A DNA stretch of 28,540 nt from Pseudomonadota bacterium (GTDB taxonomy: Bacteria; Bdellovibrionota_B; Oligoflexia; Oligoflexales; CAIYRB01): the NCBI GenBank assembly GCA_031416315.1, contig JANOTL010000055.1, positions 1-28,540 of the forward strand. The letters are read 5' to 3'. Under the pieces are notes generated by a model. The model did not search any database. It had not been told where the DNA came from and saw nothing but the letters and a program-made list of their open reading frames with translations. A program made the translations under genes and the position numbers. How positions within the stretch are numbered: the stretch's first letter is position 1; each line of letters begins with the position of its first letter. This document shows positions 1 to 14,902 of the stretch, in pieces.

Positions 1-644
1 GTCGGGGGGGCTTCCTTGCTGGACGGAACAGCGGCTTTGATCGAGTGCGGCGCGGAGGCCCCCGCGGCGGGCTTTGTCGCATTCTTCCCGGCCTCGAGAC
101 GGAGGACGTCGGCGTCGTAGCAAGCGATCACTTCATCGAGCGAAGGGAACTCTTTGCCGCATTTGCGGCAGACGAGCTTGCGGCCGTCGCGGAGAAATTT
201 GTGCATCTGGTCGCGGCGGACCGCGGTCTTGGGCTTGGGGTCCGAATGCGGCGTGCGCGCGATCGGTCGCGAGGGCTCGGCACCGGTGGCGACCGGGGCG
301 CGGACGCCAAAGACTTCGCGTTCTTCCTCCACGGCTTGCATGGTTTTGGCGCGACAAGCGTTGGAGCAGGCCTGCGCTTCGGTGCGCACCTCGTAGACTC
401 GCCGGCAGATCCCGCACCGGAAGCGTTTGGCCTCGCCGGCCGTCGGGGCGTCAGCGGCGGCCCCGGCGTTGGAGGCGAGCCACTTGTCGAGGCAGCTCGC
501 TAGACAGGCTTCGGCTTGAGCCTCGCGGGCGTGATCTTTTCTACAGACGCCGCAGGTGAATAGGGTCCCACGGCGCAGGACGCGCTTGATGGGGACGCCG
601 GGCCCAGCTTTCACCGGACGGTTTGCGGGTGGCCGAAGAGGCAT
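1..644 (-). CDS. Hypothetical protein with three tandem zinc-finger-like motifs (partial, runs off the left edge)
   Basis: Translated by hand; not in the ORF track because no stop lies in the window. ATG at 644-642, open for 214 codons: MPLRPPANRPVKAG...FTCGVCRKDHAREAQAEACLASC...FRCGICRRVYEVRTEAQACSNAC...LVCRKCGKEFPSLDEVIACYDAD... Confidence 0.85.
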   Translation of the reverse strand, partial: MPLRPPANRPVKAGPGVPIKRVLRRGTLFTCGVCRKDHAREAQAEACLASCLDKWLASNAGAAADAPTAGEAKRFRCGICRRVYEVRTEAQACSNACRAKTMQAVEEEREVFGVRAPVATGAEPSRPIARTPHSDPKPKTAVRRDQMHKFLRDGRKLVCRKCGKEFPSLDEVIACYDADVLRLEAGKNATKPAAGASAPHSIKAAVPSSKEAPP

Positions 645-650
645 GCGCCC

Positions 651-677
651 CTTTCGGCGAAATCAGGACCGACATGA
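651..677 (-). promoter_or_regulatory. Putative sigma-28 (FliA)-type promoter of the zinc-finger gene
   Basis: Minus strand TCAT-N15-GCCGAAAG versus consensus TAAA-N15-GCCGATAA; ATG follows 6 nt later. Confidence 0.4.
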
Positions 678-712
678 GACGATCTGACAGAATTTCAAGT
701 AATATTATATAG

Positions 713-2098
713 TTACCTGAACTGATCCTGGTCGAAGCCGTAGCGGTTCATCAGGCGGTAAATGTCGGCACGATAGCGGCCGGAGATGCGGGCGGCCTCG
801 CTGATGTTGCCGCCGCTGACCTTGAGGAGGTTCTCCAGGTACGCCTTCTCGAAATGTTGCTTCGCTTCGGTGAGGGGCAATGAGAAGACCTGCGAGTCGA
901 CGCCGGCGGCGGAGCTGCCTTGCATCGGACGCGTCTGGAGATGCTGGAACATGTGCTCGAGCTTGAGTTGGTCGTCGGTCGCGAGAACGACGGCGCGCTC
1001 GATCGCGTTCTGAAGCTCGCGGACGTTGCCCGGCCAATCGTAGGCCATGATGCGTGACATGACGAGGTTGGTCGGGTAGCGGACGTCGCGGCTGAAACGC
1101 TTGTTGAATTGCTCGAGGAAGCAGCGCACGAGGAGCGGGATGTCCTCGGAGCGGTGGCGAAGCGGCGGCAGGTGCAGCACGACGACCGAGAGACGGTAGT
1201 AGAGGTCTTCGCGGAAGCGCTTGCTCTTGGCTTCGTCGAGGATGTCGCGGTGGGTCGCGGCGATGACGCGCGTGTTGATCGGGATCGAGGTGCCCGCGCC
1301 GATCGGCGTGATGTGCCTTTCCTGGAGGACGCGGAGCAGCTTGGTTTGCAGAGAGATCGGCATGTCGCCGATCTCGTCGAGGAGGAGGGTGCCTTGCGAG
1401 CAGATCTCAAAGATGCCCTTGCGGTCGGCTTTGGCGTCGGTGAACGAGCCCTTTTTGTGGCCGAAAAGCTCGCTTTCGAGCAGGTTCTCCGGGATGGCCC
1501 CGCAGTTGATCGCTTCGAAGCGTTGTGTGGCGCGGGGCGAGGTGTTGTGGATGGCCCGCGCGACGACTTCCTTGCCGGTCCCGGATTCGCCGAGGATCAG
1601 CACCGTCGAGTCGACGTTGCGAATCTTTTCGATGGTCGCGATCAGCTCCTTGATGGCGAGGCTCTCGCCCGTGAGACCCAAGGACGACAGACCGGCGAGG
1701 TCGCCGGCGGTCGACGCGGGCTTCTCCGGCGTCAGGTGCTTGAGGATCTCGCCGACGATCTTGTCCGGCGCGAGGTCTTTGGTCAGAAAGCCAGTAGCGC
1801 CGCGCTGCATCGCGTCGACGGCGCGCTCGATGGAGGCGTTCGACGTCAGGACGAACACCTTGGCGAAGGGCGCTTGCTTCAACAGGAAGGGCAGCCCGTC
1901 CATGCCGTAGTCCTCGCCCAGGTTCAGGTCGAGCACGACTGCGGTGAACGAGAACTGACTGACGAGGTCCCGCATTTGGCGCAAGTCGTTCGCCGTGCTG
2001 ACGACGAACCCGGCGTGGGCCAAGGTGGCTTCGTACAGGCGACCGATGATCGGATCGTCGTCGACGATCAGGATGCGTCCGAAATAGCGCGAGCTCAT
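713..2098 (-). CDS. Sigma-54-dependent response regulator, NtrC family (REC-AAA+-HTH)
   Basis: Receiver ILIVDDD...VVLDLNL; Walker A GESGTGKE; ESELFGH; GSFTDA loop; Walker B LLLDEIGD; FREDLYYRL; WPGNVREL; C-terminal GNISEAAR HTH. Start set at ATG 2098 because AAGGAG lies upstream (ORF track start 2155). Confidence 0.95.
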   Translation of the reverse strand: MSSRYFGRILIVDDDPIIGRLYEATLAHAGFVVSTANDLRQMRDLVSQFSFTAVVLDLNLGEDYGMDGLPFLLKQAPFAKVFVLTSNASIERAVDAMQRGATGFLTKDLAPDKIVGEILKHLTPEKPASTAGDLAGLSSLGLTGESLAIKELIATIEKIRNVDSTVLILGESGTGKEVVARAIHNTSPRATQRFEAINCGAIPENLLESELFGHKKGSFTDAKADRKGIFEICSQGTLLLDEIGDMPISLQTKLLRVLQERHITPIGAGTSIPINTRVIAATHRDILDEAKSKRFREDLYYRLSVVVLHLPPLRHRSEDIPLLVRCFLEQFNKRFSRDVRYPTNLVMSRIMAYDWPGNVRELQNAIERAVVLATDDQLKLEHMFQHLQTRPMQGSSAAGVDSQVFSLPLTEAKQHFEKAYLENLLKVSGGNISEAARISGRYRADIYRLMNRYGFDQDQFR

Positions 2099-2265
2099 GC
2101 GGGGGGAACTCCTTGGGGGAGAATGCTTTGCGGCGTGTGTCGCGATTCCATGCAAAATAGTAGTTGGTTTTCAGTCCCACAAGGGAAGAATGGCGGCCGA
2201 GGAAAGGTGCCTGTATGGAATTTCATACAGTTAACCGCCATACGTGTCTCGAGGAGGATGCAGGG

Positions 2266-3108
2266 ATGTTTCGGTCGTTCGTCGTCGGCCCGGTCGGTTC
2301 TGTGATTGCTTTCGTGCCCTTACTCGTCATCAACCTGCTCCAGACCCTGAGCGTTCCGGTGGCTTTGGTTTCCAGGCCCTTGTTTAGACGCTTGAATACG
2401 GGATTCGCGGGTTGGATTTGGACCTACTGGACGCATCTCCTCGGCGGCTTGATCGGCTGCGACGTACGGTTCACGGGCGACGCGATGAAGACCCACGAGA
2501 ACGCGATCGTCATCGCCAACCACCAGAGCATGGCCGACATTGTCGTCCTGATCTTCGCGGCGAAGCGCGTCGACATGGTCGGGCACATGAAGTGGCTGGT
2601 GAAGGACGTCGTCAAGTACGTGCCTGGAGTCGGCTGGGGGATGCTCTTTCTGGACTGCATCTTTCTGAAGCGGAACTGGGCGAAGGACGAGAAGTCCGTG
2701 CGCGAGACGTTCGGACGGGTCGTCAAGAACAAGCTGCCCGTGTGGCTCGTGTCGTTCCCGGAAGGAACGCGCGCGACGGCGCCGAAGCTAGAGCGAAGCC
2801 GTCGCTACGCGCTGAACAAAGGTCTCGTGCCGACTGAGCACGTGATGATCCCACGCACCAAAGGATTCACGGCGTCGTTCGCGGGCATGCGTGAGCACGT
2901 GACGGCTGTGTACAGCTTCACGATCCGATATCACGATCCGAAGCATGAGGTCTGGGATCTGCTTTGCGGGCGGGTGAAGAGGGTGTCGGTGCATGTGAAG
3001 AGGTTGGGGGTGGAGACGTTTCCGACGGATGAGGCGGGTCTCGCGGCTTGGCTTGGGGAAGAGTTTCGGGAAAAGGATCGGACGTTCAAGAGCCTCGATT
3101 GGTCCTGA
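2266..3108 (+). CDS. Lysophospholipid (1-acyl-sn-glycerol-3-phosphate) acyltransferase family protein
   Basis: NHQSMAD (HX4D), FLKR, FPEGTR and PRTKGF motifs; GAGGAGG at 2251-2257 supports ATG 2266. Confidence 0.9.
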   Translation: MFRSFVVGPVGSVIAFVPLLVINLLQTLSVPVALVSRPLFRRLNTGFAGWIWTYWTHLLGGLIGCDVRFTGDAMKTHENAIVIANHQSMADIVVLIFAAKRVDMVGHMKWLVKDVVKYVPGVGWGMLFLDCIFLKRNWAKDEKSVRETFGRVVKNKLPVWLVSFPEGTRATAPKLERSRRYALNKGLVPTEHVMIPRTKGFTASFAGMREHVTAVYSFTIRYHDPKHEVWDLLCGRVKRVSVHVKRLGVETFPTDEAGLAAWLGEEFREKDRTFKSLDWS

Positions 3109-3112
3109 TCCG

Positions 3113-3138
3113 GTCAAAGCCGGCCGGCCGGCTTTGAC
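3113..3138. terminator. Perfect 26-bp palindrome between convergent genes, probable bidirectional terminator
   Basis: GTCAAAGCCGGCCGGCCGGCTTTGAC is its own reverse complement; 4 nt after the stop at 3108; no long U-tract. Confidence 0.6.
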
Positions 3139-3165
3139 GCTGAACCTCCGAGACGCCGAGCTGCT

Positions 3166-3951
3166 TTATGGGCAGCTCGGAACGAGCTCGGTCTCATACT
3201 CCGTCGTCGCCGGATTCGGCACGATCGCATCGAACCGTGCCTGGATCGCCGGCAGCCGCGTCGACGGCACGAAGTCGTCCAATTGGATGCAGCTGTGCTC
3301 GCCTCCCTCGACCCCGTGGCCGTTCACGATGTATTTGCCGAGTGTGAAGTCGGCGACCAAGGCGGCGATGAGGGCGCGCATTTGCCGGTACGCTTCGGCG
3401 TCCACGGCCGCGCCGTTGCCGGTCATTTTCAGGATCAGCGCGCGCGCTTCGACGGAGGTGGGCAGGGCGAAGGTGCAGGAAACGGCGTGGGCGGCAGGCT
3501 CCGTGCGATCGGGCGTAGCGACGTCGAGGGCGGCGCTGAGCCAGCGGCCGGGGGCCGTGGGGGGCGTCTGCTCGGCGCCGAGGTCGGCGTACAGAGTCAT
3601 GGGCTCGCTATATAGACGGAGCTGGTAACGCGGCCCCATTTGGACGATGGCGTAGCTCATGGAGACCGGCTCGCCGATCGGCATCGGGCCGCGGATGGTG
3701 ATCTCCGAGAGACGGCCTGTGGCCTTGCCGTCGGCCTCGAGATCCGCCTCGAAGCCGTACCCGGCGTCGGCGATGCCGTTTTCCCGGCAGGAGAGATGGC
3801 CCAGCGCGCCAAGGATGCCGCCGCTTGAGGTCGTGCCTTGCTCCTTGCTCGGCGCCTGCGGCTTGGGAAAGAGGGTCTGGGGATTGGGAAGATTGCCGCA
3901 GGCGGCGGTGACGAAGGCGAGGGCGAGGGCGATGGTGACGAGACGTTGCAT
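3166..3951 (-). CDS. Hypothetical lipoprotein
   Basis: MQRLVTIALALAFVTAAC signal with lipobox; AAGGAG RBS upstream; 261-aa ORF with no family recognised. Confidence 0.8.
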   Translation of the reverse strand: MQRLVTIALALAFVTAACGNLPNPQTLFPKPQAPSKEQGTTSSGGILGALGHLSCRENGIADAGYGFEADLEADGKATGRLSEITIRGPMPIGEPVSMSYAIVQMGPRYQLRLYSEPMTLYADLGAEQTPPTAPGRWLSAALDVATPDRTEPAAHAVSCTFALPTSVEARALILKMTGNGAAVDAEAYRQMRALIAALVADFTLGKYIVNGHGVEGGEHSCIQLDDFVPSTRLPAIQARFDAIVPNPATTEYETELVPSCP

Positions 3952-3980
3952 GGCGTGCGCTCCTTGAAAGTTCTCTTCGA

Positions 3981-3996
3981 GGCTAGCGTCGAGCCA
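3981..3996 (-). promoter_or_regulatory. Putative sigma-54 -24/-12 promoter of the 3951 lipoprotein gene
   Basis: Minus strand TGGCTC-GACGC-TAGCC with correct GG-N10-GC spacing, about 30 nt before the ATG; overlaps inverted repeat GAGCCA-N4-TGGCTC (3991-4006). Confidence 0.55.
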
Positions 3997-4015
3997 CGTT
4001 TGGCTCTAGATGTTA

Positions 4016-4056
4016 GATATGAACTTATGAACGTTTGGATATGTTTTTATGAACGT
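4016..4056. repeat. Direct repeat GATATG-N3-TTATGAACGT x2 with 22-bp period
   Basis: Copies at 4016-4034 and 4038-4056, 16 of 19 positions identical; the second copy contains the ATG at 4049. Confidence 0.8.
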
Positions 4057-4849
4057 CTTCGACGCCGACGACTACAAAGATTTTCTCCGGGCCGCGATTG
4101 CCGGGCAAAAAGGCACGCGCGGCTATCAAGCGCGGCTCGCGGAGGCGGCCGGCTGCCAGAAGACGTATCTGTCGCAAGTGCTGCACACCGAGGTGCAGCT
4201 GACGCCCGATCATGCGGCCGGACTCTGCGCGTTCTGGGGCTTCGACGCGGACGAGACGGCGTACTTCCTCGACCTCGTAGGAGTGGCGCGCGCCGGGACG
4301 AAGGCATTGCGCGACGTTCTTTCCGCGCGGCTCGCGCGGACGCGGGCGGCGTCAGAGAATCTCGCGCGGCGCTTCAAGAAGCCGGCGCTGGTGAGCGAAA
4401 GCGATCAGCTCCGCTACTATTCGGCCTGGTATTGGAGCGCGATCCACGTCTTGTGCGGGATCCCGGCCGGGTGGACGGAGAAGTCGATCGCGGCACGACT
4501 GAAGCTCCCGGTCGATCTGGTGCAGGAGGTTCTCGCGGCGATGACTGAGATGCGGCTCGTCGCGAAGCTCCGGACGGGGTGGACGGCGACGCAGCGGGAC
4601 CTGCACTTGCCGGGGGACTCGGCCCTGACGACGATCAACCATTTCAACTGGCGGCAGCGCGCGATGGCGCGCTTGCAAGAGCGGGAAGCGGGCGGCCTGC
4701 ATTATACCGCGGTGCACTCGGTGAGTCGGGCGGACGCGAAGAAGATGCGCGAGGTGATCCGAGCCTGCGTCGCGGAGACGCGCGCAATCGTGGGGCCTTC
4801 CCAGGAAGAAGAGATGGTGGCGTTCACGTGCGATTTTTTCGTGGTGTGA
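4049..4849 (+). CDS. TIGR02147-family protein (N-terminal HTH, DUF4423-like C-terminus), probable transcriptional regulator
   Basis: DYKDFL start, LAEAAGCQKTYLSQVL HTH, YFLDLV, YYSAWYWSAIH, IAARL, HFNWRQRAM and terminal FTCDFF fit my recollection of this family. Confidence 0.8.
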   Translation: MNVFDADDYKDFLRAAIAGQKGTRGYQARLAEAAGCQKTYLSQVLHTEVQLTPDHAAGLCAFWGFDADETAYFLDLVGVARAGTKALRDVLSARLARTRAASENLARRFKKPALVSESDQLRYYSAWYWSAIHVLCGIPAGWTEKSIAARLKLPVDLVQEVLAAMTEMRLVAKLRTGWTATQRDLHLPGDSALTTINHFNWRQRAMARLQEREAGGLHYTAVHSVSRADAKKMREVIRACVAETRAIVGPSQEEEMVAFTCDFFVV

Positions 4850-4974
4850 AAAGCCGCGACCAAGCGACCCATGGTGCGAGAATGCTGCATCGAGCGAGCC
4901 TAAAGCCTCGGTAGAGCGTCGCCAAGCTTGGAATGAAAAATGCTTACGTGAAGGCGAAGCATTGGGAGGCACTC

Positions 4975-5424
4975 ATGGAAATCGTTCTTGCGGCAGCCGT
5001 AGCCTGGCTCGTCGGCGACCTCGCGATGGAAGGCTTGCTCTGGGTCGGACGGCGGACGCACATCATGCGGACCGACGCGGTGCGGAGCCTCGGGTCGCTT
5101 TACCGGCATTCGTTTCGGAATGCGATGGTGCCGGGCCTGGTGATCCATTTGCTCATCGGAGCCGCCTTGACCGGCGTGCTGGCGGTCGTGGTCGCGGGCC
5201 TGCCGGTCCCGACGCTCTGGAACCACATCGGCCTCGGCAGCTTCTTTGGCGTCGTCGTCGGCGTGGCCGTCTGCTTGGCGCTCTCCGAGCTGCTGCCGTC
5301 GGAGCCGTTTTTCCGACAGTTTCCGGCACGGGCGTTGGAAGTCGCGGTGTCCACCGTGCCCGGCTACCTGATGTATGGAACGATCGCCGGGGTGGTCTTT
5401 TTCTACGTCGCCCAGTACGCTTAG
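4975..5424 (+). CDS. Hypothetical membrane protein (about 4 TM)
   Basis: Four hydrophobic stretches; GGAGG at 4965-4969 supports ATG 4975 rather than 4933. Confidence 0.75.
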   Translation: MEIVLAAAVAWLVGDLAMEGLLWVGRRTHIMRTDAVRSLGSLYRHSFRNAMVPGLVIHLLIGAALTGVLAVVVAGLPVPTLWNHIGLGSFFGVVVGVAVCLALSELLPSEPFFRQFPARALEVAVSTVPGYLMYGTIAGVVFFYVAQYA

Positions 5425-5458
5425 GGGAAATTCCCAAGCGTTTTAGGGTGGGGCAGAC

Positions 5459-7564
5459 ATGAGAGCGCATCTTCTGTTGGCGGTCGGCGTCGTATCGTTG
5501 GTCGGATTGGGAGCGTGCAAGCCGCGCCGAGATCAATCGGGCCTCCAAAGCCTGCCTGCTGAAGATGAAAGCCTGCCCGCCGGGGTCGAGCCGCCGAAGG
5601 CCGAGGACTTAAGCGACTACGCTTGTCCGACCGGCGCGGGCGACGTGAAGGTGGCTTTCTTCGACGCCGACTCGACCCTGCGCGTGTCGAAGTCAGGCGC
5701 TGTGTCGGCGAACTCGGCGGACGACGTGAACGTCCTGCCCTTCGTCGGGAAGAAGATCGGCGAGCTGCGGCGCGACGGCTTTTTGACGGCGATCGTGTCG
5801 AACCAGCTCGGCGTCAGCAAAGGCATCGTCAAGCGTGAGGACGCGGAGGCGGCGTTGCGCCTAGCGGCGCGTCACGTCTCGGCGCTCGGCGGCGGCTTCG
5901 ACTACATCGGATTGGCGACCGCCGAGGACGAGAAGCGCAAGCCCGGCGTCGGCATGGCGACCCTGCTCGAAAGTTTGCTCCGCGAGAAGTGCAAGAAGGG
6001 CATCGACAAGTCGAAGAGCCTCATGGTCGGCGACTCCGGCTATAAGCTCGGGGTCGACGGGCCGCATCCGGACGGGCGCCTCGCCGACGACTTCAGCAGC
6101 GCGGACCGGGGCTTCGCGGAGGCTTACGGCATTCCGTTCCACGAGCCGACCGACTACTTCGGCTGGAAGGCGTTCTCCGTCTTCAACATCGAGAACGAGG
6201 GCGAGCTGCGCGACTTTCTGCGTGAGATCGCCTTCTCCGGCACCGACGAGCAGAAGCAGGACGGGCTAAACGTCGCGAAGCTCAATCGTTTCGAGGGCGA
6301 GCTGACGTTTCGCTTCGCGCATTACAACATCAAGGAGCTGACGACCGGCAAGATCGTCGACCAGCAGAACGAGCAAATCAAGAACGCGACCGAGATCGTC
6401 CGGGGGCTCGAGCCCGACATCCTGTCGATCAACGAGGTCCAATACGATTTGCCCGACACGCCGACCACCGGGCTGCCGGGGACCGGCGAGAACATGAAGC
6501 GCCTCCTGCAGCGCATCGCGCCGGCGAACGTGGCACAGTGGGAATCCAATCTGGCGCCAGCGAACACGGGTAAGCGGGCGAAGAAGAATGCGCAGGGGCA
6601 ATACGCGGTCGACCCGAACGGGCCGGGAGCCGACCAGCTCGTGGACACGGTGAGCTTCGGGACTTTTCCAGGCCAGTATTCGACGGGCTTCGCGACGCGG
6701 TTTCCCGTGAAGAACCGGATCGTGCACACCAATACGACCTGGGCCGACTGGGACACCGGCGTCGATCTCCAGGCCCTGACGCTGCCGAACGGCGCCAAGC
6801 CCCCGGCGGACATGGAGCTCTTCGACAAGAACTTCAACGACGTCGTCATCGACCTCGCCGGCCGCGAGGCGCACATGGTGACCTTCCACACGGTGCCGGC
6901 GTTCGGCTTCGGCGGCTCGGCGGCCCTCAACATCGCGCGGAATCGGTCACAGCTGGAGTTTCTCGAGTGGTACTTGCTCGGGAGCTGTGACCCGGCAGCA
7001 GCGGCAAGCAAGGTGAAGCGCTGCGAGACGGACGTGAAGCCGCTCGAGGGGAATGCGCCCTTCATCGCCGTCGGGGACTTCAACGTCGATTTGACCTCGG
7101 GGAGCGGCGGCGCCGACGTCTTGCGCCGGGTCTTGGCCGACAAACGGGTGAACAACTGGCGGGCGGTCAATCACGACCCGGCGATGCGGATGGATCCCGA
7201 CACGAAGCGCTCGCACATCACGTACGCGAGCGACGGCGTGGACCTCGGGAAGCTGCAGAGCGAGCTCGACTATTTTCTGGTGTCGAAGCATTTCCGGGTC
7301 GACGGCGGGCGCGTCGTCGCGCCGCTGAGCGGTTACCGCCAGATCGCCTGCCATCCGACCAAAGCGATGGCGGATGCGGCGAAATCGGGAGCGACCGCCG
7401 GCGCGGGCAAAGTGCTGCAGGTCTCGACGCGTTATGGCGAGAATAACGTGAAGAGCTTCTGCGCCATCGAGGTCAACGAGGCTTGGGTGTCGGCGCGTAA
7501 GGGTAGCGATCACTTGCCGATTTACGTGGCGTTCCGTTGGGCTCCGGAGCCGAAGAAGAATTAA
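5459..7564 (+). CDS. Lipoprotein: HAD-IIIA polynucleotide 3'-phosphatase-like domain fused to an endonuclease/exonuclease/phosphatase (EEP) domain
   Basis: Lipobox LGAC; HAD motifs FFDADSTL, IVSNQ, RKPGVGM, MVGDS, DFSSADRGFA; EEP motifs HYNI, PDILSINEV, TFH, VGDFN, LDYFLVS, GSDHLPI. Confidence 0.85.
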   Translation: MRAHLLLAVGVVSLVGLGACKPRRDQSGLQSLPAEDESLPAGVEPPKAEDLSDYACPTGAGDVKVAFFDADSTLRVSKSGAVSANSADDVNVLPFVGKKIGELRRDGFLTAIVSNQLGVSKGIVKREDAEAALRLAARHVSALGGGFDYIGLATAEDEKRKPGVGMATLLESLLREKCKKGIDKSKSLMVGDSGYKLGVDGPHPDGRLADDFSSADRGFAEAYGIPFHEPTDYFGWKAFSVFNIENEGELRDFLREIAFSGTDEQKQDGLNVAKLNRFEGELTFRFAHYNIKELTTGKIVDQQNEQIKNATEIVRGLEPDILSINEVQYDLPDTPTTGLPGTGENMKRLLQRIAPANVAQWESNLAPANTGKRAKKNAQGQYAVDPNGPGADQLVDTVSFGTFPGQYSTGFATRFPVKNRIVHTNTTWADWDTGVDLQALTLPNGAKPPADMELFDKNFNDVVIDLAGREAHMVTFHTVPAFGFGGSAALNIARNRSQLEFLEWYLLGSCDPAAAASKVKRCETDVKPLEGNAPFIAVGDFNVDLTSGSGGADVLRRVLADKRVNNWRAVNHDPAMRMDPDTKRSHITYASDGVDLGKLQSELDYFLVSKHFRVDGGRVVAPLSGYRQIACHPTKAMADAAKSGATAGAGKVLQVSTRYGENNVKSFCAIEVNEAWVSARKGSDHLPIYVAFRWAPEPKKN

Positions 7565-7873
7565 GTGGGCGACGCGCTCAAACTCGTCCTACCGCGTCTG
7601 CTGGGCGTGCCGCTGCTCGTCTTCGCCTTTCGCCTGTCCGGGCTCGGGCACGGGTGGCAGCATGCCGATCGCTACGAGTTTACATTTGCGTGCCTGTTGG
7701 CGTTTCTAGGCGTCGGCTTTTGCGCCTGGGGCGTGAATTTCATTCACTATCTGGTCGCGGCATTCGGCAACCAGAAGAACCCCGAAAATCCCGCGCCTTC
7801 GGCCAAGTCCGGGCTCGTCTGGGTCTTGTTCGTCTTTGTCGTGCTGGTGGACTGGGTGCGCGACTGTGGCTGA
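7565..7873 (+). CDS. Small hypothetical membrane protein (about 3 TM)
   Basis: GTG directly abuts the upstream stop; three hydrophobic segments. Confidence 0.65.
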   Translation: MGDALKLVLPRLLGVPLLVFAFRLSGLGHGWQHADRYEFTFACLLAFLGVGFCAWGVNFIHYLVAAFGNQKNPENPAPSAKSGLVWVLFVFVVLVDWVRDCG

Positions 7874-7881
7874 GGTCCTGA

Positions 7882-8193
7882 ATGGGTGACGCGTTCCGCA
7901 TTATGGCGACGCGCAGCTTCGGCGCGATCTGCTTGTGGATCGCGTGGTGGATCGCGGGGCCAACCGTCGCGCCGAAGTCCGAGGTCATAGCGGTGATCGT
8001 CGCGTTAGGCGGCTTGCTGGCGACATCCGTCGGCATCGGCTTCATCCATGACGGGCGGCGCGGAGCGCAGCGGGGGATTCTATGGTTCATCGACCCAGAA
8101 GATGGTGGAGGGACCTTCGGCGAATTTCTCGTGACCGTCGGCGCGCTCGTGGTTTACGGCGGCATGATCTTCATTCAACATAAACCGGGTTAA
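7882..8193 (+). CDS. Small hypothetical membrane protein (about 3 TM), likely related to 7565-7873
   Basis: 8 nt after the previous stop; three hydrophobic segments; shared MGDA start. Confidence 0.65.
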   Translation: MGDAFRIMATRSFGAICLWIAWWIAGPTVAPKSEVIAVIVALGGLLATSVGIGFIHDGRRGAQRGILWFIDPEDGGGTFGEFLVTVGALVVYGGMIFIQHKPG

Positions 8194-8201
8194 AGCGGTA
8201 C

Positions 8202-8288
8202 CGCGATCACGTCGCCGACCGCATTGCCGAAGCCGCTGCTGAACGAGACCCAAAGTCCGCCGCCTTCCTGCTTTTCTTCAGGCTTGGG
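8202..8288 (-). pseudogene. Diverged fragment of the 13082-14902 gene (copy of 13757-13843)
   Basis: Hand alignment: 87 nt, ungapped, 11 mismatches, same orientation. Confidence 0.95.
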
Positions 8289-8291
8289 GCG

Positions 8292-8338
8292 GACCACCGG
8301 GGCTTCCGGGGACGGGCGAGAACATGAAGCGCCTCATG
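8292..8338 (+). pseudogene. Diverged fragment of the HAD-EEP gene (copy of 6463-6508)
   Basis: 8300-8338 matches 6470-6508 at 36 of 39 nt (GLPGTGENMKRL); GACCACC precedes both, with one extra G in the copy. Confidence 0.9.
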
Positions 8339-8413
8339 TTCGGGCAAGTCCGCGCCCATATGAGTCCTCTTCGTCTTTTTTTGCTGGTCGCCTTGGTGCG
8401 TGACTCTGAGTGA
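8339..8413 (+). pseudogene. Degenerate fragment of the 3' end of the 7565-7873 gene (copy of 7798-7873)
   Basis: About 58 of 76 positions identical; ends on the equivalent TGA; carries a TGG>TGA nonsense change and a 1-nt deletion. Confidence 0.85.
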
Positions 8414-8458
8414 CGCGCTCGTCGTCGCGGGGCAGGCGGGGACCACCTTTTGAATCGA

Positions 8459-8481
8459 TAATCAAATAATAATATTGATTA
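8459..8481. promoter_or_regulatory. Inverted repeat TAATCAA-N9-TTGATTA in an AT-rich island upstream of the cassette
   Basis: Perfect 7-bp arms within a markedly AT-rich stretch (8448-8490). Confidence 0.45.
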
Positions 8482-8507
8482 AATTTTTGAGACACGGAGC
8501 TTCGCCC

Positions 8508-8534
8508 TAAGGCGATTCGAGTAGTTGCCGATTC
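8508..8534 (+). promoter_or_regulatory. Putative sigma-28 (FliA)-type promoter of the acylation cassette
   Basis: TAAG-N15-GCCGATTC versus TAAA-N15-GCCGATAA; ATG 7 nt downstream with no Shine-Dalgarno. Confidence 0.55.
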
Positions 8535-8541
8535 GTTCGAT

Positions 8542-9717
8542 ATGCAGGCTCTTCACAAACCCCACGCCCCGGCCGCGGCTCCGCGCGAAGCCACGCTCGC
8601 TCCTAGCTTTTGGCGGCGCGTTCGGCGCAGTAGCTTGCCACTCATGCTCCTCCTTCTCGTCGCCGTAAATGCTCTTTGTTGGTACGCGGAATCATCGTTG
8701 GTGAAGCACCGCGCGGAGAACCTACTGCAGACCGGGTCGAGCGCGAACGTCGACGCGCCACCGACCGGCGATCTGTCATTCGGCGGGGCACCGGCGAGCT
8801 ACTGGCCCTTCATTCCCGACGCTCGCCACACGCGGCTAACGATCCTCGCGGGCATGTCGCAGTTGATCGTCATCAACGATCGGCAGCCCGGCGACGCCTT
8901 GGCGGTCGACGTTATGGATTCCGAACTCCGGCGTCGCGGTTCGCACCGCGCGTTCGGCTTGACGGCGCCGAACATGGCGAACGAGGAAGCGCTCTTCCTT
9001 TTGCTGGCGACCGCGGCACGGCCGGAGACAACGCCGACAAACTTCGTGTTCGGCGTATGCTTCGACAAGTTCCGCAACGTCGACCTCCGCGCGGCATACG
9101 GCCAGTTCCTCCGCGGCGATCCGGTGCTTTCGAACGCCTGGCGCCAGGCGATCGCGACGTATGGCGCGAAGTACCCCCTCGCGACCGAGAAGATGCGGCA
9201 GACGCTGGAGGCCCCGGTCGCCCTCGCAGCCGAGGCTACCCTCGACGGTACGCTCCGCGAGGCGATCGGTAAAGTCGTGCCGCTCGTGCGGCTGCGCCAG
9301 GAGTTGAACGCCGAGTTGATGACGCAGTTGTTCACGCTGCGGAATTTCGTCCTGCGCATCAAGGCCTCGAGCAAGCGTCGGATGCTCGCGGCACGCTACG
9401 CGACGAACCAGGAGTTCGTCGCGTTGATGATCGACTTGGCGCGGCAAAAGGGGATCGAGCCGCTTTTCTATGTTAACCCCTTGAATCGCATCGCCGAGAC
9501 GCCTTATGTCGACGAGGAGTACCGCGACTTCAAGACCTGGCTTTTGCGCCTCGCTTCGCGGGAGAAGACGCAGGTGGTGGACCTCGACGCCGTCGTGCCC
9601 GACGCAGCGTGGGGCGAGGTCGACGGCGAGCCCGACTTCAAGCATTTTCGCGGCGAAGGCCACCGGATCTTGGCGCGAGCCCTGCTCGAGTCGTTCGCGG
9701 GGGCGTTCGTGCCATGA
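8542..9717 (+). CDS. Membrane-anchored SGNH-like (DltD/AlgJ-type) acyltransferase
   Basis: N-terminal TM helix; ILAGMSQ (GxS nucleophile block, 8851-8862); C-terminal DFKH (DxxH, 9634-9645); stop overlaps the MBOAT start (ATGA). Confidence 0.7.
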   Translation: MQALHKPHAPAAAPREATLAPSFWRRVRRSSLPLMLLLLVAVNALCWYAESSLVKHRAENLLQTGSSANVDAPPTGDLSFGGAPASYWPFIPDARHTRLTILAGMSQLIVINDRQPGDALAVDVMDSELRRRGSHRAFGLTAPNMANEEALFLLLATAARPETTPTNFVFGVCFDKFRNVDLRAAYGQFLRGDPVLSNAWRQAIATYGAKYPLATEKMRQTLEAPVALAAEATLDGTLREAIGKVVPLVRLRQELNAELMTQLFTLRNFVLRIKASSKRRMLAARYATNQEFVALMIDLARQKGIEPLFYVNPLNRIAETPYVDEEYRDFKTWLLRLASREKTQVVDLDAVVPDAAWGEVDGEPDFKHFRGEGHRILARALLESFAGAFVP

Positions 9718-11111
9718 TGTTTGTGAGCTACTCGTATCTCGTGTTCCTCCTGGTCGTGGTCGGCCTTTTCTGGAGCCTCCCCACCCGCACACGGCTGCCG
9801 CTTCTGATCGCGGCGAGCATCTTCTTCTACGCCAGCTGGAGCTGGCCTTACGCTTTCCTCCTGCTGGCGACGGCCGCCTTCAACTGGAGTTTCGGGCGCT
9901 ACGTCCTGGCGCGGCCGGCCGGCGCCCCGCGGCACGCGCTGGCGCTCGGCATCGGCGCAAACGTGCTCCTCCTCGTCTACTTCAAATACACTGCGTTTAT
10001 GTTCGCGAACGTCACCTCGCTCCTCGGGCTCCTCGGCCTCGAGGTCGCTTTGAGCTGGACGTCGCCGGCTTTGCCGCTCGGAATCTCATTCTTCACGTTC
10101 CAGGGGATTGCCTACCTCGTCGACGTCGCCGCCGGCGAGAAGCCGATGCATCGCTTTCGCGATTTCGCACTTTTCAAGGCGCTGTGGCCGCAGCTCATCG
10201 CCGGACCGATCGTGCGGCTGGACGAATTCCGCGATCAAAAAGTCGCGGAGCGTCCCGATTTCGATCAGATCGCGGCCGGCGGCCTGCGGGTCCTGCAAGG
10301 TTTCGCGAAGAAGGTGATGCTCGCGGACCAGCTGGGGCCGTTCGTCGACCAAGTTTTCCAAAAAGGGGTAACGCCGAACGCGGTAGACGTCGTCTGCGGG
10401 ACCTTGGCCTTCGGCATGCAGATCTACTTCGACTTCAGCGGCTACACCGACATCGCCATCGGCTCGGCCAAGCTCGTCGGCTACGAGCTGCCGGAAAACT
10501 TCGACTGGCCGTACCGGGCAACGTCGCCGCAACAATTCTGGGCGCGCTGGCACATGTCGCTATCACGCTGGATCCGCGACTACGTGTTCACGCCGTTGGC
10601 CTTTACGTTCCGGCGTCGAGTCTACGGCACGATCGCGACCCAGATCGCGGCGATGGCGCTATGCGGCCTGTGGCACGGCGCGAGCTGGACGTTCGTCATC
10701 TGGGGAGCCTGGCACGGTGTATGGCTGACGCTGTCGTCGCGGATCGGCCTCTTCTCGGCGAAGGCGGATGGCAAGGTCGCGCTCCGCCTCGCTGCCTGGA
10801 CCGCCACAATGGTGATCGTGGCCCTCGGTTGGCTCGCCTTCCGTGCGCCGACCCTCGCATGGCTCGGTACCGCGCTCCAGAGCCTCTTTACGGCTCGTGG
10901 AGGGCTGCAGCCGGCGATCCTGCGCGAGAACGTCATCCTGGTGGTCGGACTTTATTCACTCGCGGTTTACGGCTCGGCGCTCGGATTGATGTTATGGCCA
11001 GCGAAAGAGCGGCCGCGTCTGCGTTTCCGCGCCTTCGTGTTCGCCGCGACGATTGTACTGATCGTGATCCTCGACCGCGAGGCACAGCCCTTCATTTATT
11101 TTCAGTTCTAG
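9714..11111 (+). CDS. MBOAT family O-acyltransferase (AlgI/DltB-like)
   Basis: LPLGISFFTFQ, PQLIAGPI, QIYFDFSGYTDIAIG, FWARWHMSLSRWIRDYVF, GLWHGASW (catalytic His), C-terminal FIYFQF; start set at ATG 9714. Confidence 0.95.
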   Translation: MMFVSYSYLVFLLVVVGLFWSLPTRTRLPLLIAASIFFYASWSWPYAFLLLATAAFNWSFGRYVLARPAGAPRHALALGIGANVLLLVYFKYTAFMFANVTSLLGLLGLEVALSWTSPALPLGISFFTFQGIAYLVDVAAGEKPMHRFRDFALFKALWPQLIAGPIVRLDEFRDQKVAERPDFDQIAAGGLRVLQGFAKKVMLADQLGPFVDQVFQKGVTPNAVDVVCGTLAFGMQIYFDFSGYTDIAIGSAKLVGYELPENFDWPYRATSPQQFWARWHMSLSRWIRDYVFTPLAFTFRRRVYGTIATQIAAMALCGLWHGASWTFVIWGAWHGVWLTLSSRIGLFSAKADGKVALRLAAWTATMVIVALGWLAFRAPTLAWLGTALQSLFTARGGLQPAILRENVILVVGLYSLAVYGSALGLMLWPAKERPRLRFRAFVFAATIVLIVILDREAQPFIYFQF

Positions 11112-11136
11112 CCCTTTCAATCTCAGAGTCGAGTCG

Positions 11137-12831
11137 ATGACCAACAAGATTCCGCTGGTGTGGAATGAATGGCGACGCCATGCGGAGGCGCGGCCGGATG
11201 CCGAAGCGTTCGTGCACCTCAGCGCGGAGAAGCCGGCGGTGCGCGTGACGTGGCAAGAGCTGATTACGAAGTCCGAAACGTATGCGGCGGCCCTCGTCGC
11301 TCAAGGCGTTGAGGTGGGCGACGTGTGCGGCCTGATGGTGCGGCACATTCCTGAGTTCTACGCGCTTTACCTCGGCATCTGTCGTGCTGGCGGCGTGCCT
11401 TCGGTCCTTGCCTACCCGAATGCCAGGCTCCATGCGGAGAAGTTTTGCGCCGGCCTCTCCGGGATGGCGCGGCAATCCGGCCTGCGTTGGCTCCTGATCG
11501 AACGTGAGCTCGAGGCGAAGGTCGCCCCCTTGATCAACGGGCCCGAGAGCACGATCCGTGGCCTGATCTTTCCGCTGGAGGCGCCGCCGACGAGCGAGCG
11601 CGTCGCTTGGCCGCTGCTCGCGCCCGAGGCGGTAATGCTGCTGCAGCACTCCTCGGGGACGACCGGTCTGCAGAAAGGCGTCGCGCTTTCCCACCGAGCG
11701 GTGCTCGAGCACGTTCGCGCCTACGGCCGCGCACTCGGCATCACGCCGCGCGACAAAGTCGCGTCTTGGCTCCCGCTGTATCACGACATGGGGCTGATCG
11801 CCGCGTTTCACTTGCCGATGGCGACCGGCATTCCCGTCGTCATGCTGGACCCTTTCGAATGGGTCATGGCACCCTGGCTTCTGCTGAAGGCGATCGCCGA
11901 CGAACGCGCGACGCTCACTTGGCTGCCGAACTTCGCCCTCAACTTGATGGCCGACCGCATCCGTGAGGAGGACGTGGCCGGACTGGACTTCTCGTCCTTG
12001 CGCTTGGCGATTAACTGCAGCGAGCCCGTTCGGGCGGAGAGTCACGCGCGTTTCTTGGATCGCTTCGCACCACACGGTCTGCGCCGTGAGGCGCTCGCGA
12101 CTTGCTACGCGATGGCTGAGACGACGTTCGCCGTGACGCAGAGTCGGCCTGGCATCGCGCCATCGGCCCTTCCCGTCGACCGGGAGCTCCTGACGCAAGG
12201 GCTCGTTTGCAGCCCGCAATGGGGCGCTGAGACACGCGTGTGCCTTTCCTCGGGTCAGCTCCTCGAGGGCGTGGAGATGAAGGTGGTCGGCGAGGGCGGC
12301 GAGCTCTGCGGCGACGGGCGCGTCGGCGAGCTCGTCGTGCGCTCCCCGGCCTTGTTCGACGGCTATCACGCGAATCCGGACGCGACGGCTCGCGTCCTGA
12401 TCGACGGCTGGTTCCACACGGGCGACATGGGTTTCTGCCGCGACGGGGACGTATTCGTCGTCGGCCGCAAGAAGGACTTGATCATTGTCGCGGGCAAGAA
12501 CATCTATCCCGAAGATGTCGAGATCGCATTGACCGACGTCGAGGGCGTCGTGCCGGGTCGCGTCGTCGCGTTCGGGGTCTTCGATCAGGCGCTCGGCACC
12601 GAGCAGATTTGGGTCGCTTTCGAAGCTCGCCCCGACGCCGACCTCGCGAGCCTTCCCCTCGCCGTCAAGCGCGCGGCGATGGCCATCGGCATCACCATAG
12701 CGGAGGTCGAGATCGTGCCGGCTCGCTGGTTGGTCAAGAGCTCTTCCGGTAAGCTCTCTCGGAGCGCGAACCGCGACCGCGTCCTCGAACAACGCATGCA
12801 GGGAGGCAAGACGTGGTTTCTCAGCGCCTGA
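11137..12831 (+). CDS. Fatty acyl-AMP ligase (FAAL)-like adenylating enzyme
   Basis: LQHSSGTTGLQKGV, SWLPLYHDMGLI, CYAMAETT followed by a FAAL-type insertion, TGDMGF, GRKKDLIIVAGKNIYPEDVE, KSSSGKLSR. Confidence 0.9.
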   Translation: MTNKIPLVWNEWRRHAEARPDAEAFVHLSAEKPAVRVTWQELITKSETYAAALVAQGVEVGDVCGLMVRHIPEFYALYLGICRAGGVPSVLAYPNARLHAEKFCAGLSGMARQSGLRWLLIERELEAKVAPLINGPESTIRGLIFPLEAPPTSERVAWPLLAPEAVMLLQHSSGTTGLQKGVALSHRAVLEHVRAYGRALGITPRDKVASWLPLYHDMGLIAAFHLPMATGIPVVMLDPFEWVMAPWLLLKAIADERATLTWLPNFALNLMADRIREEDVAGLDFSSLRLAINCSEPVRAESHARFLDRFAPHGLRREALATCYAMAETTFAVTQSRPGIAPSALPVDRELLTQGLVCSPQWGAETRVCLSSGQLLEGVEMKVVGEGGELCGDGRVGELVVRSPALFDGYHANPDATARVLIDGWFHTGDMGFCRDGDVFVVGRKKDLIIVAGKNIYPEDVEIALTDVEGVVPGRVVAFGVFDQALGTEQIWVAFEARPDADLASLPLAVKRAAMAIGITIAEVEIVPARWLVKSSSGKLSRSANRDRVLEQRMQGGKTWFLSA

Positions 12832-13052
12832 AGGATCTGATCTTGCGCGAGCTCAAGCTAATCGGCGTCGCGATCGAGGCCACGACGGTGGCCGACGACG
12901 TGCCCGGTTGGGATTCCTTAAGCCATCTCAAGGTGCTGACGGCCGTGGAAAACGACTTCGGGATCCGCTTTGTGGGCATGGAGGTGCTGCGTCTGAAGAA
13001 CGTCGGCTCTTTGCAAGCACTGGTCGACCGTAAGCTCGCGGAACGCAAGTGA
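12813..13052 (+). CDS. Acyl carrier protein
   Basis: 79 aa, WDSLSH phosphopantetheine motif, VENDFGI; GGAGG upstream of the GTG; overlaps the ligase stop. Confidence 0.92.
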   Translation: MVSQRLKDLILRELKLIGVAIEATTVADDVPGWDSLSHLKVLTAVENDFGIRFVGMEVLRLKNVGSLQALVDRKLAERK

Positions 13053-13081
13053 GGGCGGCGACGCCGTGACGCCGAGCTCGG

Positions 13082-14902
13082 TCAGAGCGGGTACTTCGCC
13101 ATGACCTTGATCGAGTTGAAGCCGAGGTGCGGGCGCCGGTTGTTCTTGTTCTTCAAAGTCATGCGCTCGTCCATGATCTCGATCTGGCCGCCGAAGGTCA
13201 GCGTCGCGGTCGGGTCGTACTGCCAAGCGCCGACGGCGAGCGACCAGCCGAGCGAGGACTCGATCAGGTAGCGTGTGCCCTTGCCCGTCGTGGCGTAGCC
13301 GACGCGGCCGATGTTGAGCGGATAGAGCGTGTAGTCGGCGAACCAGTCGTAGCGATGGACGCCGCCCGCGTCGATGCGGCCGCCGAGGCCACCGAAGAGG
13401 CCGCCGCGGATCCAGTCGCCGCCGCCGTACTTCTGGCCCTTGCCCTCGACCGACATGCCGGAGAAACGGCCGAGGCCGCCGGCCTTCCAACTGGAGAGGA
13501 TCGCTGCGGGGTTGGCGAGGTAGTCTTGCCAAAAGAGCATGGCATAGGCGTCGTAGCCGAGCCATGTGCCCTTGTTGGCTTTGCCGAAGCCGCCGCCGCC
13601 GCCGAAGGCGACCTTGAACTTCGCGAAAGAGTGACGCTCGACGCCGCCGCCGATCGAGTTGATCAGCCACAAGGGGAACTTGCCAGTGGCGTTGACGGGG
13701 CCCTTAATCGACCACCACTGTGGGCCTGCGTAAAGGCGCAGCTCGTCCACAGGATTCGCGATCACGTCGCCGACGGCGTTGCCGACGCCGCTGCTGAACG
13801 AGTCCCAGAGGCCGCCGCCTTCATTCTTCTCTTCGGGCTTTGGCTCTTCCTTCTTCTCTTCTGCGATAGGCTCGCCAGCTTCGGCCGGCGGCGCGTCGAC
13901 GACCTTGGCCTCGGGTGGCACGGGGATCGAGCCGTCTTCCTGCGGTGGCATGCTCTCGGCGAGCTTCGGCGAAGGTTTGGCGGCGGCGACTCCAGCAGCC
14001 TTCGGCACCACCTTCGCCGGCGGCGTTCCAAGGTAGAGCGGCGGCACCACGATCGGACCCTGAGCGCCGGAGTCCTTCATGCTCTCGTCCTGCGCCTGGC
14101 GCGCAAACTTCACTCGCCCCGCGATCGCGGGGATGCGGGCGCCGTCACCGACTTCGACGGCGTTGTCGTAGGTCAGCTTGATCAACCGGGCGACCGAGGT
14201 GAAGTTCTTCACTTCGATGACCTGCGCCTTGCCTAACGGTTGCTTCTTGAAATCGAGCCAGGTGCCGTTGGCGGGATGCAGGGACTCGATGGTCGTTCTT
14301 ACGAGGTCGACCTCGTCGCCGACTTGCACGCCTTGCTCCACGCCGCCGGATAGGGTCGCATACTGGCCCTGGACCGAGGTGACGCTGACGTCGACCGGCA
14401 TGCGGTTGAAGAGGCGAAAGACGAGGTCCTGGACCTTGTCCTTGAGCTCGTCCGAGGAGGCTGCGGCGGACCAGGCCCTAGGCAGAGTCTCGGTCTCGAG
14501 CAACTGCGACTTCAGGTCTGGGTCGAGGAGGCGGGCGGTGAGGATGACGGTGTCGCTGCGCGGCGTCACAGTAAGTGAAGCGAACGAGTGGAGCTCGAAT
14601 TGCGATTGCAGCTCCCCGCGCCCTTCCTTGTCTTGCCAGAGGCCGGAGACGAGGTCGTCGGAGAGGACGCGGAAACGGTGCGCAGCGCGGACGGCGGCGG
14701 GGAAGCCTTCGCCGAAGGCGGTGCGCGCGGTCTCGAGACCAGACGCGTCGTCGCCTTCCCATTGTGCGGGGATGACGCCGACCTGCTGGATCACGGGCAA
14801 TTTCGGCCCGACGGCGGCTCCGAGGAGGGGAGCCGAGCCGACCGCAAAAAGCAGTGATATTAAAGTTTTATAGCTTTTCGATCTGATGGTTTGTCCCGTC
14901 AT
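13082..14902 (-). CDS. Secreted or outer-membrane hypothetical protein: FlgT-C-like domain, Pro/Glu-rich linker, beta-barrel-like C-terminus
   Basis: Signal-like N-terminus; VTSVQGQYATLSGGVEQGVQVGDEV resembles the FlgT C-terminal pattern; Gly/aromatic-rich strands ending KVMAKYPL; start overlaps spoVR by 35 nt. Confidence 0.75.
   Translation of the reverse strand: MTGQTIRSKSYKTLISLLFAVGSAPLLGAAVGPKLPVIQQVGVIPAQWEGDDASGLETARTAFGEGFPAAVRAAHRFRVLSDDLVSGLWQDKEGRGELQSQFELHSFASLTVTPRSDTVILTARLLDPDLKSQLLETETLPRAWSAAASSDELKDKVQDLVFRLFNRMPVDVSVTSVQGQYATLSGGVEQGVQVGDEVDLVRTTIESLHPANGTWLDFKKQPLGKAQVIEVKNFTSVARLIKLTYDNAVEVGDGARIPAIAGRVKFARQAQDESMKDSGAQGPIVVPPLYLGTPPAKVVPKAAGVAAAKPSPKLAESMPPQEDGSIPVPPEAKVVDAPPAEAGEPIAEEKKEEPKPEEKNEGGGLWDSFSSGVGNAVGDVIANPVDELRLYAGPQWWSIKGPVNATGKFPLWLINSIGGGVERHSFAKFKVAFGGGGGFGKANKGTWLGYDAYAMLFWQDYLANPAAILSSWKAGGLGRFSGMSVEGKGQKYGGGDWIRGGLFGGLGGRIDAGGVHRYDWFADYTLYPLNIGRVGYATTGKGTRYLIESSLGWSLAVGAWQYDPTATLTFGGQIEIMDERMTLKNKNNRRPHLGFNSIKVMAKYPL

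Follow-up and report, generated by a model that had tools for sequence, protein, structure and literature searches.

A spacer of diverged gene pieces ahead of an acyl-transfer cassette in an Oligoflexia genome, probably the scar of a gene gain

How a spacer made of gene pieces came to lie ahead of an acyl-transfer cassette, and whether it does anything there, are the questions raised by this locus of an Oligoflexia genome. The spacer (8190-8413) is 224 nt long and consists of four trimmed and diverged pieces of the neighbouring genes (Table 1). In what follows, the window is the whole 28,540-nt stretch of DNA that was analysed, the gene at 13082-14902 is called A, and other genes go by their first position. 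When 8100-8700 was compared with the window by blastn, 8202-8288 matched 13757-13843 (76 of 87 nt identical, E 6e-26), 8289-8338 matched 6460-6508 (90% over 50 columns, E 7e-13) and 8339-8408 matched 7798-7868 (77% over 71 columns, E 1e-9). All three pieces are direct, that is, on the same strand as their sources, and neighbours among them are not separated by any gap. Thus, the three same-orientation copies that an earlier note on this DNA had claimed at 8202-8288, 8292-8338 and 8339-8413 are borne out at 77-90% identity. Searched against the entire 6.36-Mb genome, the A, 5459 and 7565 pieces gave E values of 9e-24, 1e-10 and 2e-7, respectively, and the sources in the window were the best matches. 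When the third piece was aligned as a whole with 7798-7873, 58 of 76 columns were identical, with 17 mismatches, one 1-nt gap and one premature stop, exactly the nonsense change and 1-nt deletion claimed before, and its stop (8411-8413) was aligned with the stop of the 7565 gene. A repeated unit between acquired pieces, as in a CRISPR-like array, was not detected in 8100-8700 by blastn; the pieces abut directly.

The fourth piece is short, and the likeness of 8190-8201 to the end of the 13082 gene, which had been called weak, is stronger than stated. Among the 9402 positions in 5459-14902, the 13-mer 8189-8201 scored highest at 13081, at the stop of gene A (7 against 5 for the next position). 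Without the bases that overlap the 7882 stop this signal is lost, as the last 8 nt of the 13-mer alone tie among five places. From left to right, the order is the 7882 gene, the end of A, the middle of A, the joint, the middle of 5459, the end of 7565 and the cassette. The overlap of the remnant A stop with the 7882 stop shows the empty-site arrangement inside the scar. On the minus strand, the remnant A stop closes an open frame of 48 codons, for which no support as a gene was found.

Table 1. Features of the spacer and its surroundings (positions in the window)
Feature	Position	Strand	Remarks
Polynucleotide 3'-phosphatase-like plus exo/endonuclease/phosphatase gene, intact	5459..7564	+	PF08645, PF03372; source of one piece
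Small hydrophobic protein gene, intact	7565..7873	+	No Pfam match; source of one piece
Small hydrophobic protein gene, fills the site in the left-hand version	7882..8193	+	In 0 of 11 relatives
Remnant of last codons and stop of second 13082-gene copy	8190..8201	-	Reads ...VPL(stop) vs ...KYPL(stop); stop overlaps 7882 stop
Internal piece of second 13082-gene copy	8202..8288	-	Source 13757-13843, frame intact; ~660 nt deleted between it and previous piece
Novel joint between left-hand and right-hand locus versions	8289..8291	.	2 nt common to source ends; bridged by X1 and X2 contigs
Internal piece of second 5459-gene copy	8292..8338	+	Source 6463-6508; 3 substitutions, 1 gap
Perfect 8-bp inverted repeat, 8320-8327 / 8334-8341	8320..8341	.	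Right arm crosses 8338/8339 joint
3' end of second 7565-gene copy	8339..8413	+	Source 7798-7873; stop 8411-8413; premature stop, 1-nt deletion
AT-rich stretch upstream of cassette, likely promoter region	8414..8541	+	Genome-wide search: not copied from elsewhere
Four-gene cassette: SGNH-like, MBOAT acyltransferase, fatty acyl-AMP-ligase-like, acyl carrier protein	8542..13052	+	PF03062, PF00501
Gene A, intact, family-conserved	13082..14902	-	Behind prkA-yeaH-spoVR; source of two pieces

The cassette is predicted to acylate a surface polymer. In addition to its Pfam matches, it gave DltB-like and FAAL-like matches below the cut-off, and the carrier protein is ACP-like. Homologues of its first protein are about 41-49% identical, some of them with PF13472, and the named ones are from other phyla. 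In the AT-rich stretch between spacer and cassette, no match to the sigma-70 consensus was found. The protein of gene A (about 600 aa) has no Pfam or NCBIfam match, and its gene is found family-wide behind prkA-yeaH-spoVR; it has a likely signal peptide, a proline-rich linker and a glycine-/aromatic-rich C-terminal part that is barrel-like by eye. The protein of the 5459 gene is a two-domain fusion behind a lipoprotein-like signal and is patchy in the family. A perfect 26-nt palindrome (3113-3138) lies between the convergent plsC-like and 3166 genes and is likely a shared terminator. No integrase or transposase families were found among the 27 window proteins scanned (13 + 14), as had been claimed from the sequence.

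It could be argued that the spacer results from an assembly chimera or from chance similarity, since the assembly is metagenome-derived and lies in 226 contigs. This can practically be dismissed. The genome-wide E values go down to about 1e-23, and the pieces differ from their sources by 10-23%, with a bias in codon position. A contig from run X1, which is possibly the source sample, covers 6812-9476 with no differences, and a 151-nt contig from run X2, of another study, covers 8238-8388 with no differences at a depth of just 2. The X2 contig spans both inner joints with at least 50 nt on each side. Because contigs from two studies carry the sequence unchanged, the spacer is not a misassembly, barring a contamination common to X1 and X2, and the chimera that the earlier note had wanted excluded is thereby set aside. 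Among the 15 joints listed out of 21, there was no long-sided joint leading from 7882 to gene A.

We consider it rather probable that the spacer is an inert scar of gene gain, left when two strain versions of the locus were joined in tandem. One version would have had 5459, 7565 and 7882 facing gene A and the other 5459, 7565 and the cassette facing gene A. The DNA of a close relative is likely to have paired by homology at one end and to have been joined without homology at 8288/8292; alternatively, it may have been circularised and have entered by a single crossover, so that neither version was lost. Most of the spare gene sequence then likely went in two or more deletions, one of about 660 nt inside the spare A copy and one of about 1290 nt from the spare 5459 into the spare 7565, and the remaining 224 nt would since have decayed. 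The earlier note had the cassette arriving at this place. The joining of two versions is supported; as the layout is symmetric, either the cassette or 7882 may have been the newcomer. Codon use gives no decision here, with 7882 at the 6th percentile and the cassette genes at the 19th-46th.

The joints were examined for the way in which the pieces came together. At the central joint (13843 to ~6463) the source ends have 2 nt in common. Because 2 nt are too few, homology alone does not explain this joint, and the claim that acquisition was homology-driven falls short in this respect. The two deletion joints have microhomologies of 5 nt and 6 nt, which are reached by about 10-11% of random pairs; they are not significant and the joints are not clean, so that microhomology does not serve as proof of the deletion mechanism. 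One arm of the inverted repeat in Table 1, the right one, needs one change from its source. A hairpin across the 8338/8339 joint could be the trace of fold-back template switching in that deletion; 0.45-0.59% of positions sit in such 8-bp arms, and the hairpin is a post hoc observation.

The same order of pieces would be obtained if at least 6463-13843 had been duplicated in tandem inside one genome, after which the cassette replaced 7882 in one copy, or the reverse, and the spare copies decayed. Tandem duplications triggered by transformation are documented in the part of a pneumococcal study that we draw on (PMC3784515). We regard such a duplication as a possible but unlikely origin, and what bears on it is the way in which the copies have diverged. 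If a duplicate dies at once beside a living twin, the expected pN/pS is about 0.55 (by our own model, with the living copy at 0.1). The A piece has 7 synonymous and 4 non-synonymous differences (pN/pS 0.17, pS 0.36) with its frame intact, the 5459 piece has a pN/pS of 0.20 and the 7565 piece one of 0.84. Since synonymous changes prevail in two of the three pieces, the copies would be working alleles that diverged in different strains, with some later decay. Taken jointly, the window pieces do not reject internal duplication, as 13.5 of their 30 differences are synonymous and the excess over duplication followed by decay has a P of 0.19; the P of 0.036 for the two best pieces is that of a selected subset. 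A pool of 10 pieces from six local scars, namely, the window scar, C74, C138, C146, C208 and that of the congener G001, gave a pN/pS of 0.35 with 53.5 of 110 differences synonymous (P 0.008 against about 0.55). With the living-copy value set from 0 to 0.3, the expected pN/pS is 0.50-0.65 and P goes from 0.028 to 0.0005, which argues against internal duplication, with the caveat that blast detection may favour conserved pieces. The pool left out two C34 pieces, which are not local, and C219-C104, which was recognised later and whose three copies have 31/54, 19/25 and 30/47 of their differences at third positions.

The C208 pieces have a pN/pS of 0.53-0.56, and they and the 7565 piece look like plain decay. 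Changes in the fragments also lean from G/C to A/T (16 against 6), as in neutral decay, which would suit internal duplication. Tandem copies of working genes are unstable, and under internal duplication the pS of the A piece together with its intact frame would need a long joint survival of two such copies. Where the earlier note had put duplication and integration side by side, the synonymous bias favours an allele from another strain, although the window pieces by themselves do not decide this.

If strain versions were joined here, the question arises of what is found at this place in relatives. Eleven other genomes of the family, none of them conspecific, were compared. The 7882 gene, the 7565 gene and the first gene of the cassette were each found in 0 of the 11, and none of the three lies beside gene A in any relative among those examined; the 5459 gene has a full-length relative in 1 of the 11, at a different locus. 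Gene A, on the other hand, is conserved across the family, its nearest full-length orthologue being 56% identical in protein, and behind its 3' end most relatives carry differing genes. Since the cargo there differs in most relatives, the 3' end of A is an insertion hotspot. The distance from plsC to A is about 1.8 kb in the congener G001 and about 10 kb in the source genome. In G001 (C388:3823-5615, L021), a gene for an Uma2 putative nuclease and a copy of A lie between plsC and A. This copy is 159 nt long, 93% identical and from another part of A; it lies beyond the Uma2 gene, has a pN/pS of 0.14 and is fused to the end of a probable helix-turn-helix gene (by eye; no Pfam match). The G001 scar at this hotspot is independent of that in the window. 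The G001 contig (L056) is the sole case of a copy of A at the A hotspot among 20 loci, the other 19 representing about 13 lineages, with less than 1.3 kb downstream in three and the gene end not located in one. In G004 (L029:10343-11271), gene A is directly followed by a transposase-like gene that by eye is RAYT-like and has short repeats, both inverted and direct.

The spacer could also have been kept as a regulator, either by read-through from the left operon that is antisense to the A mRNA, as the earlier note had suggested, or by a junction hairpin in control of the cassette. The orientation permits an 87-nt duplex of 87% with the A mRNA, a simple scan gave no terminator-like site after 7882, a perfect 8-bp hairpin lies over one joint and the sequence is identical in two studies. 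However, the spacer folds no better than shuffled sequences (z -1.47 and -0.46), an Rfam search at E up to 1 gave no match, one of the pieces is interrupted by a stop and a frameshift, and the sequence is not conserved in G001, the scar of which has another part of A. The suggested role found no support in these results and we hold it to be very unlikely. Still more improbable is that the spacer is an attachment-site relic of a lost site-specific integrative element. An attachment core would be a single short repeat, nearly identical at the two cargo ends. The genome does have such sites, for a 30-nt copy of the groEL 3' end lies beside a phage integrase on C188. In the window, no integrase was found among the 27 proteins, and the pieces are from three genes, 77-90% identical and mostly internal, with none repeated at both ends of the cargo. 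The C188 element itself (198-7003, L142), an integrase element at the groEL 3' end with a 30-nt direct repeat, is an ordinary att-type island.

Scars of this kind were searched for by comparing intergenic DNA with the genome and each contig with itself. Of 455 intra-contig repeat pairs, 29 (25 direct and 4 inverted) had one member, and not the other, inside a long predicted gene; 24 rows passed the filters for length, distance and E. Six scar loci in the 6.36-Mb genome were kept by hand: C55 (the window scar), C74, C138, C146, C208 and C219-C104. The gene caller was home-made and these counts are therefore rough lower bounds. C74 has a 267-nt repeat of 91% around a 15-kb island, which also has a gene with a transposase domain; in C138, a 66-nt copy lies on the far side of an O-antigen-ligase-like cassette; and C146 has a 179-nt gene-end copy of 98%. 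In C208 (11814-19921, L065), genes for an ABC-2 transporter and three glycosyltransferases are inserted between two copies of a 2-hydroxyacid dehydrogenase gene, one intact and one decayed; the decayed copy is internally deleted and ahead of the cassette. The empty site of C208 is present in the congener G001. C219 (7262-12424) and C104 (1-6985), which overlap by 37 nt (L144/L145), hold three diverged (68-75%) alleles of a lipoprotein-like gene of about 600-720 aa, each followed by trimmed 3' copies of the right-flank ABC-ATPase-like gene (named by eye). Once, a piece of the left flank is present as well, and there the order of right flank, joint, left flank and cargo is as in the window. By its layout, C219-C104 would have received additions at the same place three times or more. 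The proposal made before, of an empty-site version and a cassette version in tandem that later collapsed, thus gains from the piece order and the overlapping stops in the window, from the same order in C219-C104 and from the empty site of C208.

In addition to the six, C34 (5579-6081, L069) holds a third trimmed version of 5459-7565, in which window positions 7139-7347 (85%) are joined to 7579-7873 (72%); it ends at the 7565 stop and is synonymous-biased. A candidate on C131 (57 nt, 301 nt away) was not counted. Other candidates were rejected as scars: C16 (an unpredicted gene, chance match), C75 (a palindromic repeat), C188 (the groEL end with an integrase), C95 (a piece of an integrase gene), C72, C202, C153 and C205 (paralogues), C168 (IS-like copies), and C123 and C217 (internal repeats). 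The palindromic repeat of C75 (48733-48823, 60118-60197 and ~63920-63953) is about 80 nt long, dispersed and REP- or MITE-like, and is also on C223, C202, C172, C28 and C181. C95 (41259-41314 and 43530-44552, L143) has an island by selB that carries a phage integrase gene and, in decayed form, 56 nt copied from a part of that gene. In G001, an MFS-transporter-like gene (by eye; C8, L078:1690-2180) has apparently collapsed by internal deletion and lies directly behind a 5'-nucleotidase gene, the orthologue of which borders the C138 scar. As a control, G003, from another genus of the same family, was searched over 1.10 Mb of its approximately 4.7 Mb. One scar was found, a copy in three pieces that has lost internal sequence and lies about 3.3 kb from its gene. 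Because this control holds one too, the scar type is not special to the source genome. A lineage-specific rate of scars had to be given up, as 1 in 1.10 Mb is close to 6 in 6.36 Mb and counts this low do not allow rates to be tested.

These features can be compared with systems already described, each taken here from the portion of the source that deals with it. Insertion with long target duplication was defined for restriction-modification genes, as an insertion of less than 20 kb with a repeat of more than 30 bp and no other mobile element, and was found mostly in naturally competent species (Furuta et al. 2010, PMC2853133). The window is similar in that 5.5 kb without a mobility gene separate the A piece from its source, and that a direct 87-nt A piece (87%) and a 13-nt gene end are present, fragmented and not contiguous. 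In the text drawn on, the repeats of such insertions are mostly near-identical and contiguous, whereas in the window a unit of several kb survives as three-gene pieces of 77-90%. The window locus works like an insertion with long target duplication but is not strictly a member, its cargo being SGNH-like, MBOAT, AMP-ligase and ACP genes and not restriction-modification genes. At the same hotspot in G001, the scar borders a gene for a putative restriction nuclease (Uma2), like insertions of this kind. For the capsule island of Neisseria meningitidis, which has an intact galE1 and a truncated galE2, the passages used propose illegitimate capture en bloc into the gene at the empty site (PMC5349592). 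There, the divergent copy that is Region D' is traced to another species, and an earlier duplication is kept as the alternative (PMC6619384, PMC5349592). As far as those passages go, the galE2 case resembles ours in that cargo for a surface structure was taken up en bloc without an integrase and that the gene beside the cargo is intact at one end and truncated at the other; the truncated meningococcal copy is phylogenetically distinct. Region D' is described there as kilobases long, inverted and still driving inversions, whereas the window copies are direct, amount to 224 nt and include pieces from both flanks.

For the effector-immunity arrays of the Vibrio cholerae T6SS, repeated one-sided capture through homology-facilitated illegitimate recombination is described in the sections cited (PMC5361080). 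In those sections, anchored capture shifts the old alleles and leaves gene-end remnants, and the arrays grow by rounds, as may be compared with C219-C104. The retained immunity genes are described there as useful and selected, whereas no such benefit was seen for the remnants in the window. Merodiploids of Streptococcus pneumoniae carry tandem duplications after transformation (PMC3784515, in the part considered), and the likeness lies in intact and cassette-bearing locus versions in tandem. As described in that part, they need pre-existing repeats, span 100-900 kb and have identical copies; in the window, no bordering repeat was seen. The window scar is thus an ordinary, already described kind of gene gain, and it points to no new system or function.

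The source genome encodes ComEC-family and DprA-family proteins. These do not show transformation because most control genomes have them too (over the cut-off in 10 of 14). It has also been considered whether these Oligoflexia have a dedicated, integrase-free way of stacking alleles, by which the DNA of kin would be anchored in a conserved gene end and joined by fold-back template switching, so that diverged versions of a locus would be piled up in tandem. The perfect hairpin over one joint would then be the footprint of a replicative switch, and the stack of three rounds on C219-C104 an example of such piling up. We think this doubtful. In a literature search on gene transfer, no reports of such scars in Oligoflexia were found. 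What the window offers is a compact record, in Oligoflexia, of an integrase-free cassette and its alternative ending side by side. It indicates that gene gain at a hotspot can keep both alleles rather than swap one for the other, and that sequence of relatives not sampled in any other way is preserved in short scars. If allele stacking were true, such scars would be an archive of alleles from these relatives.
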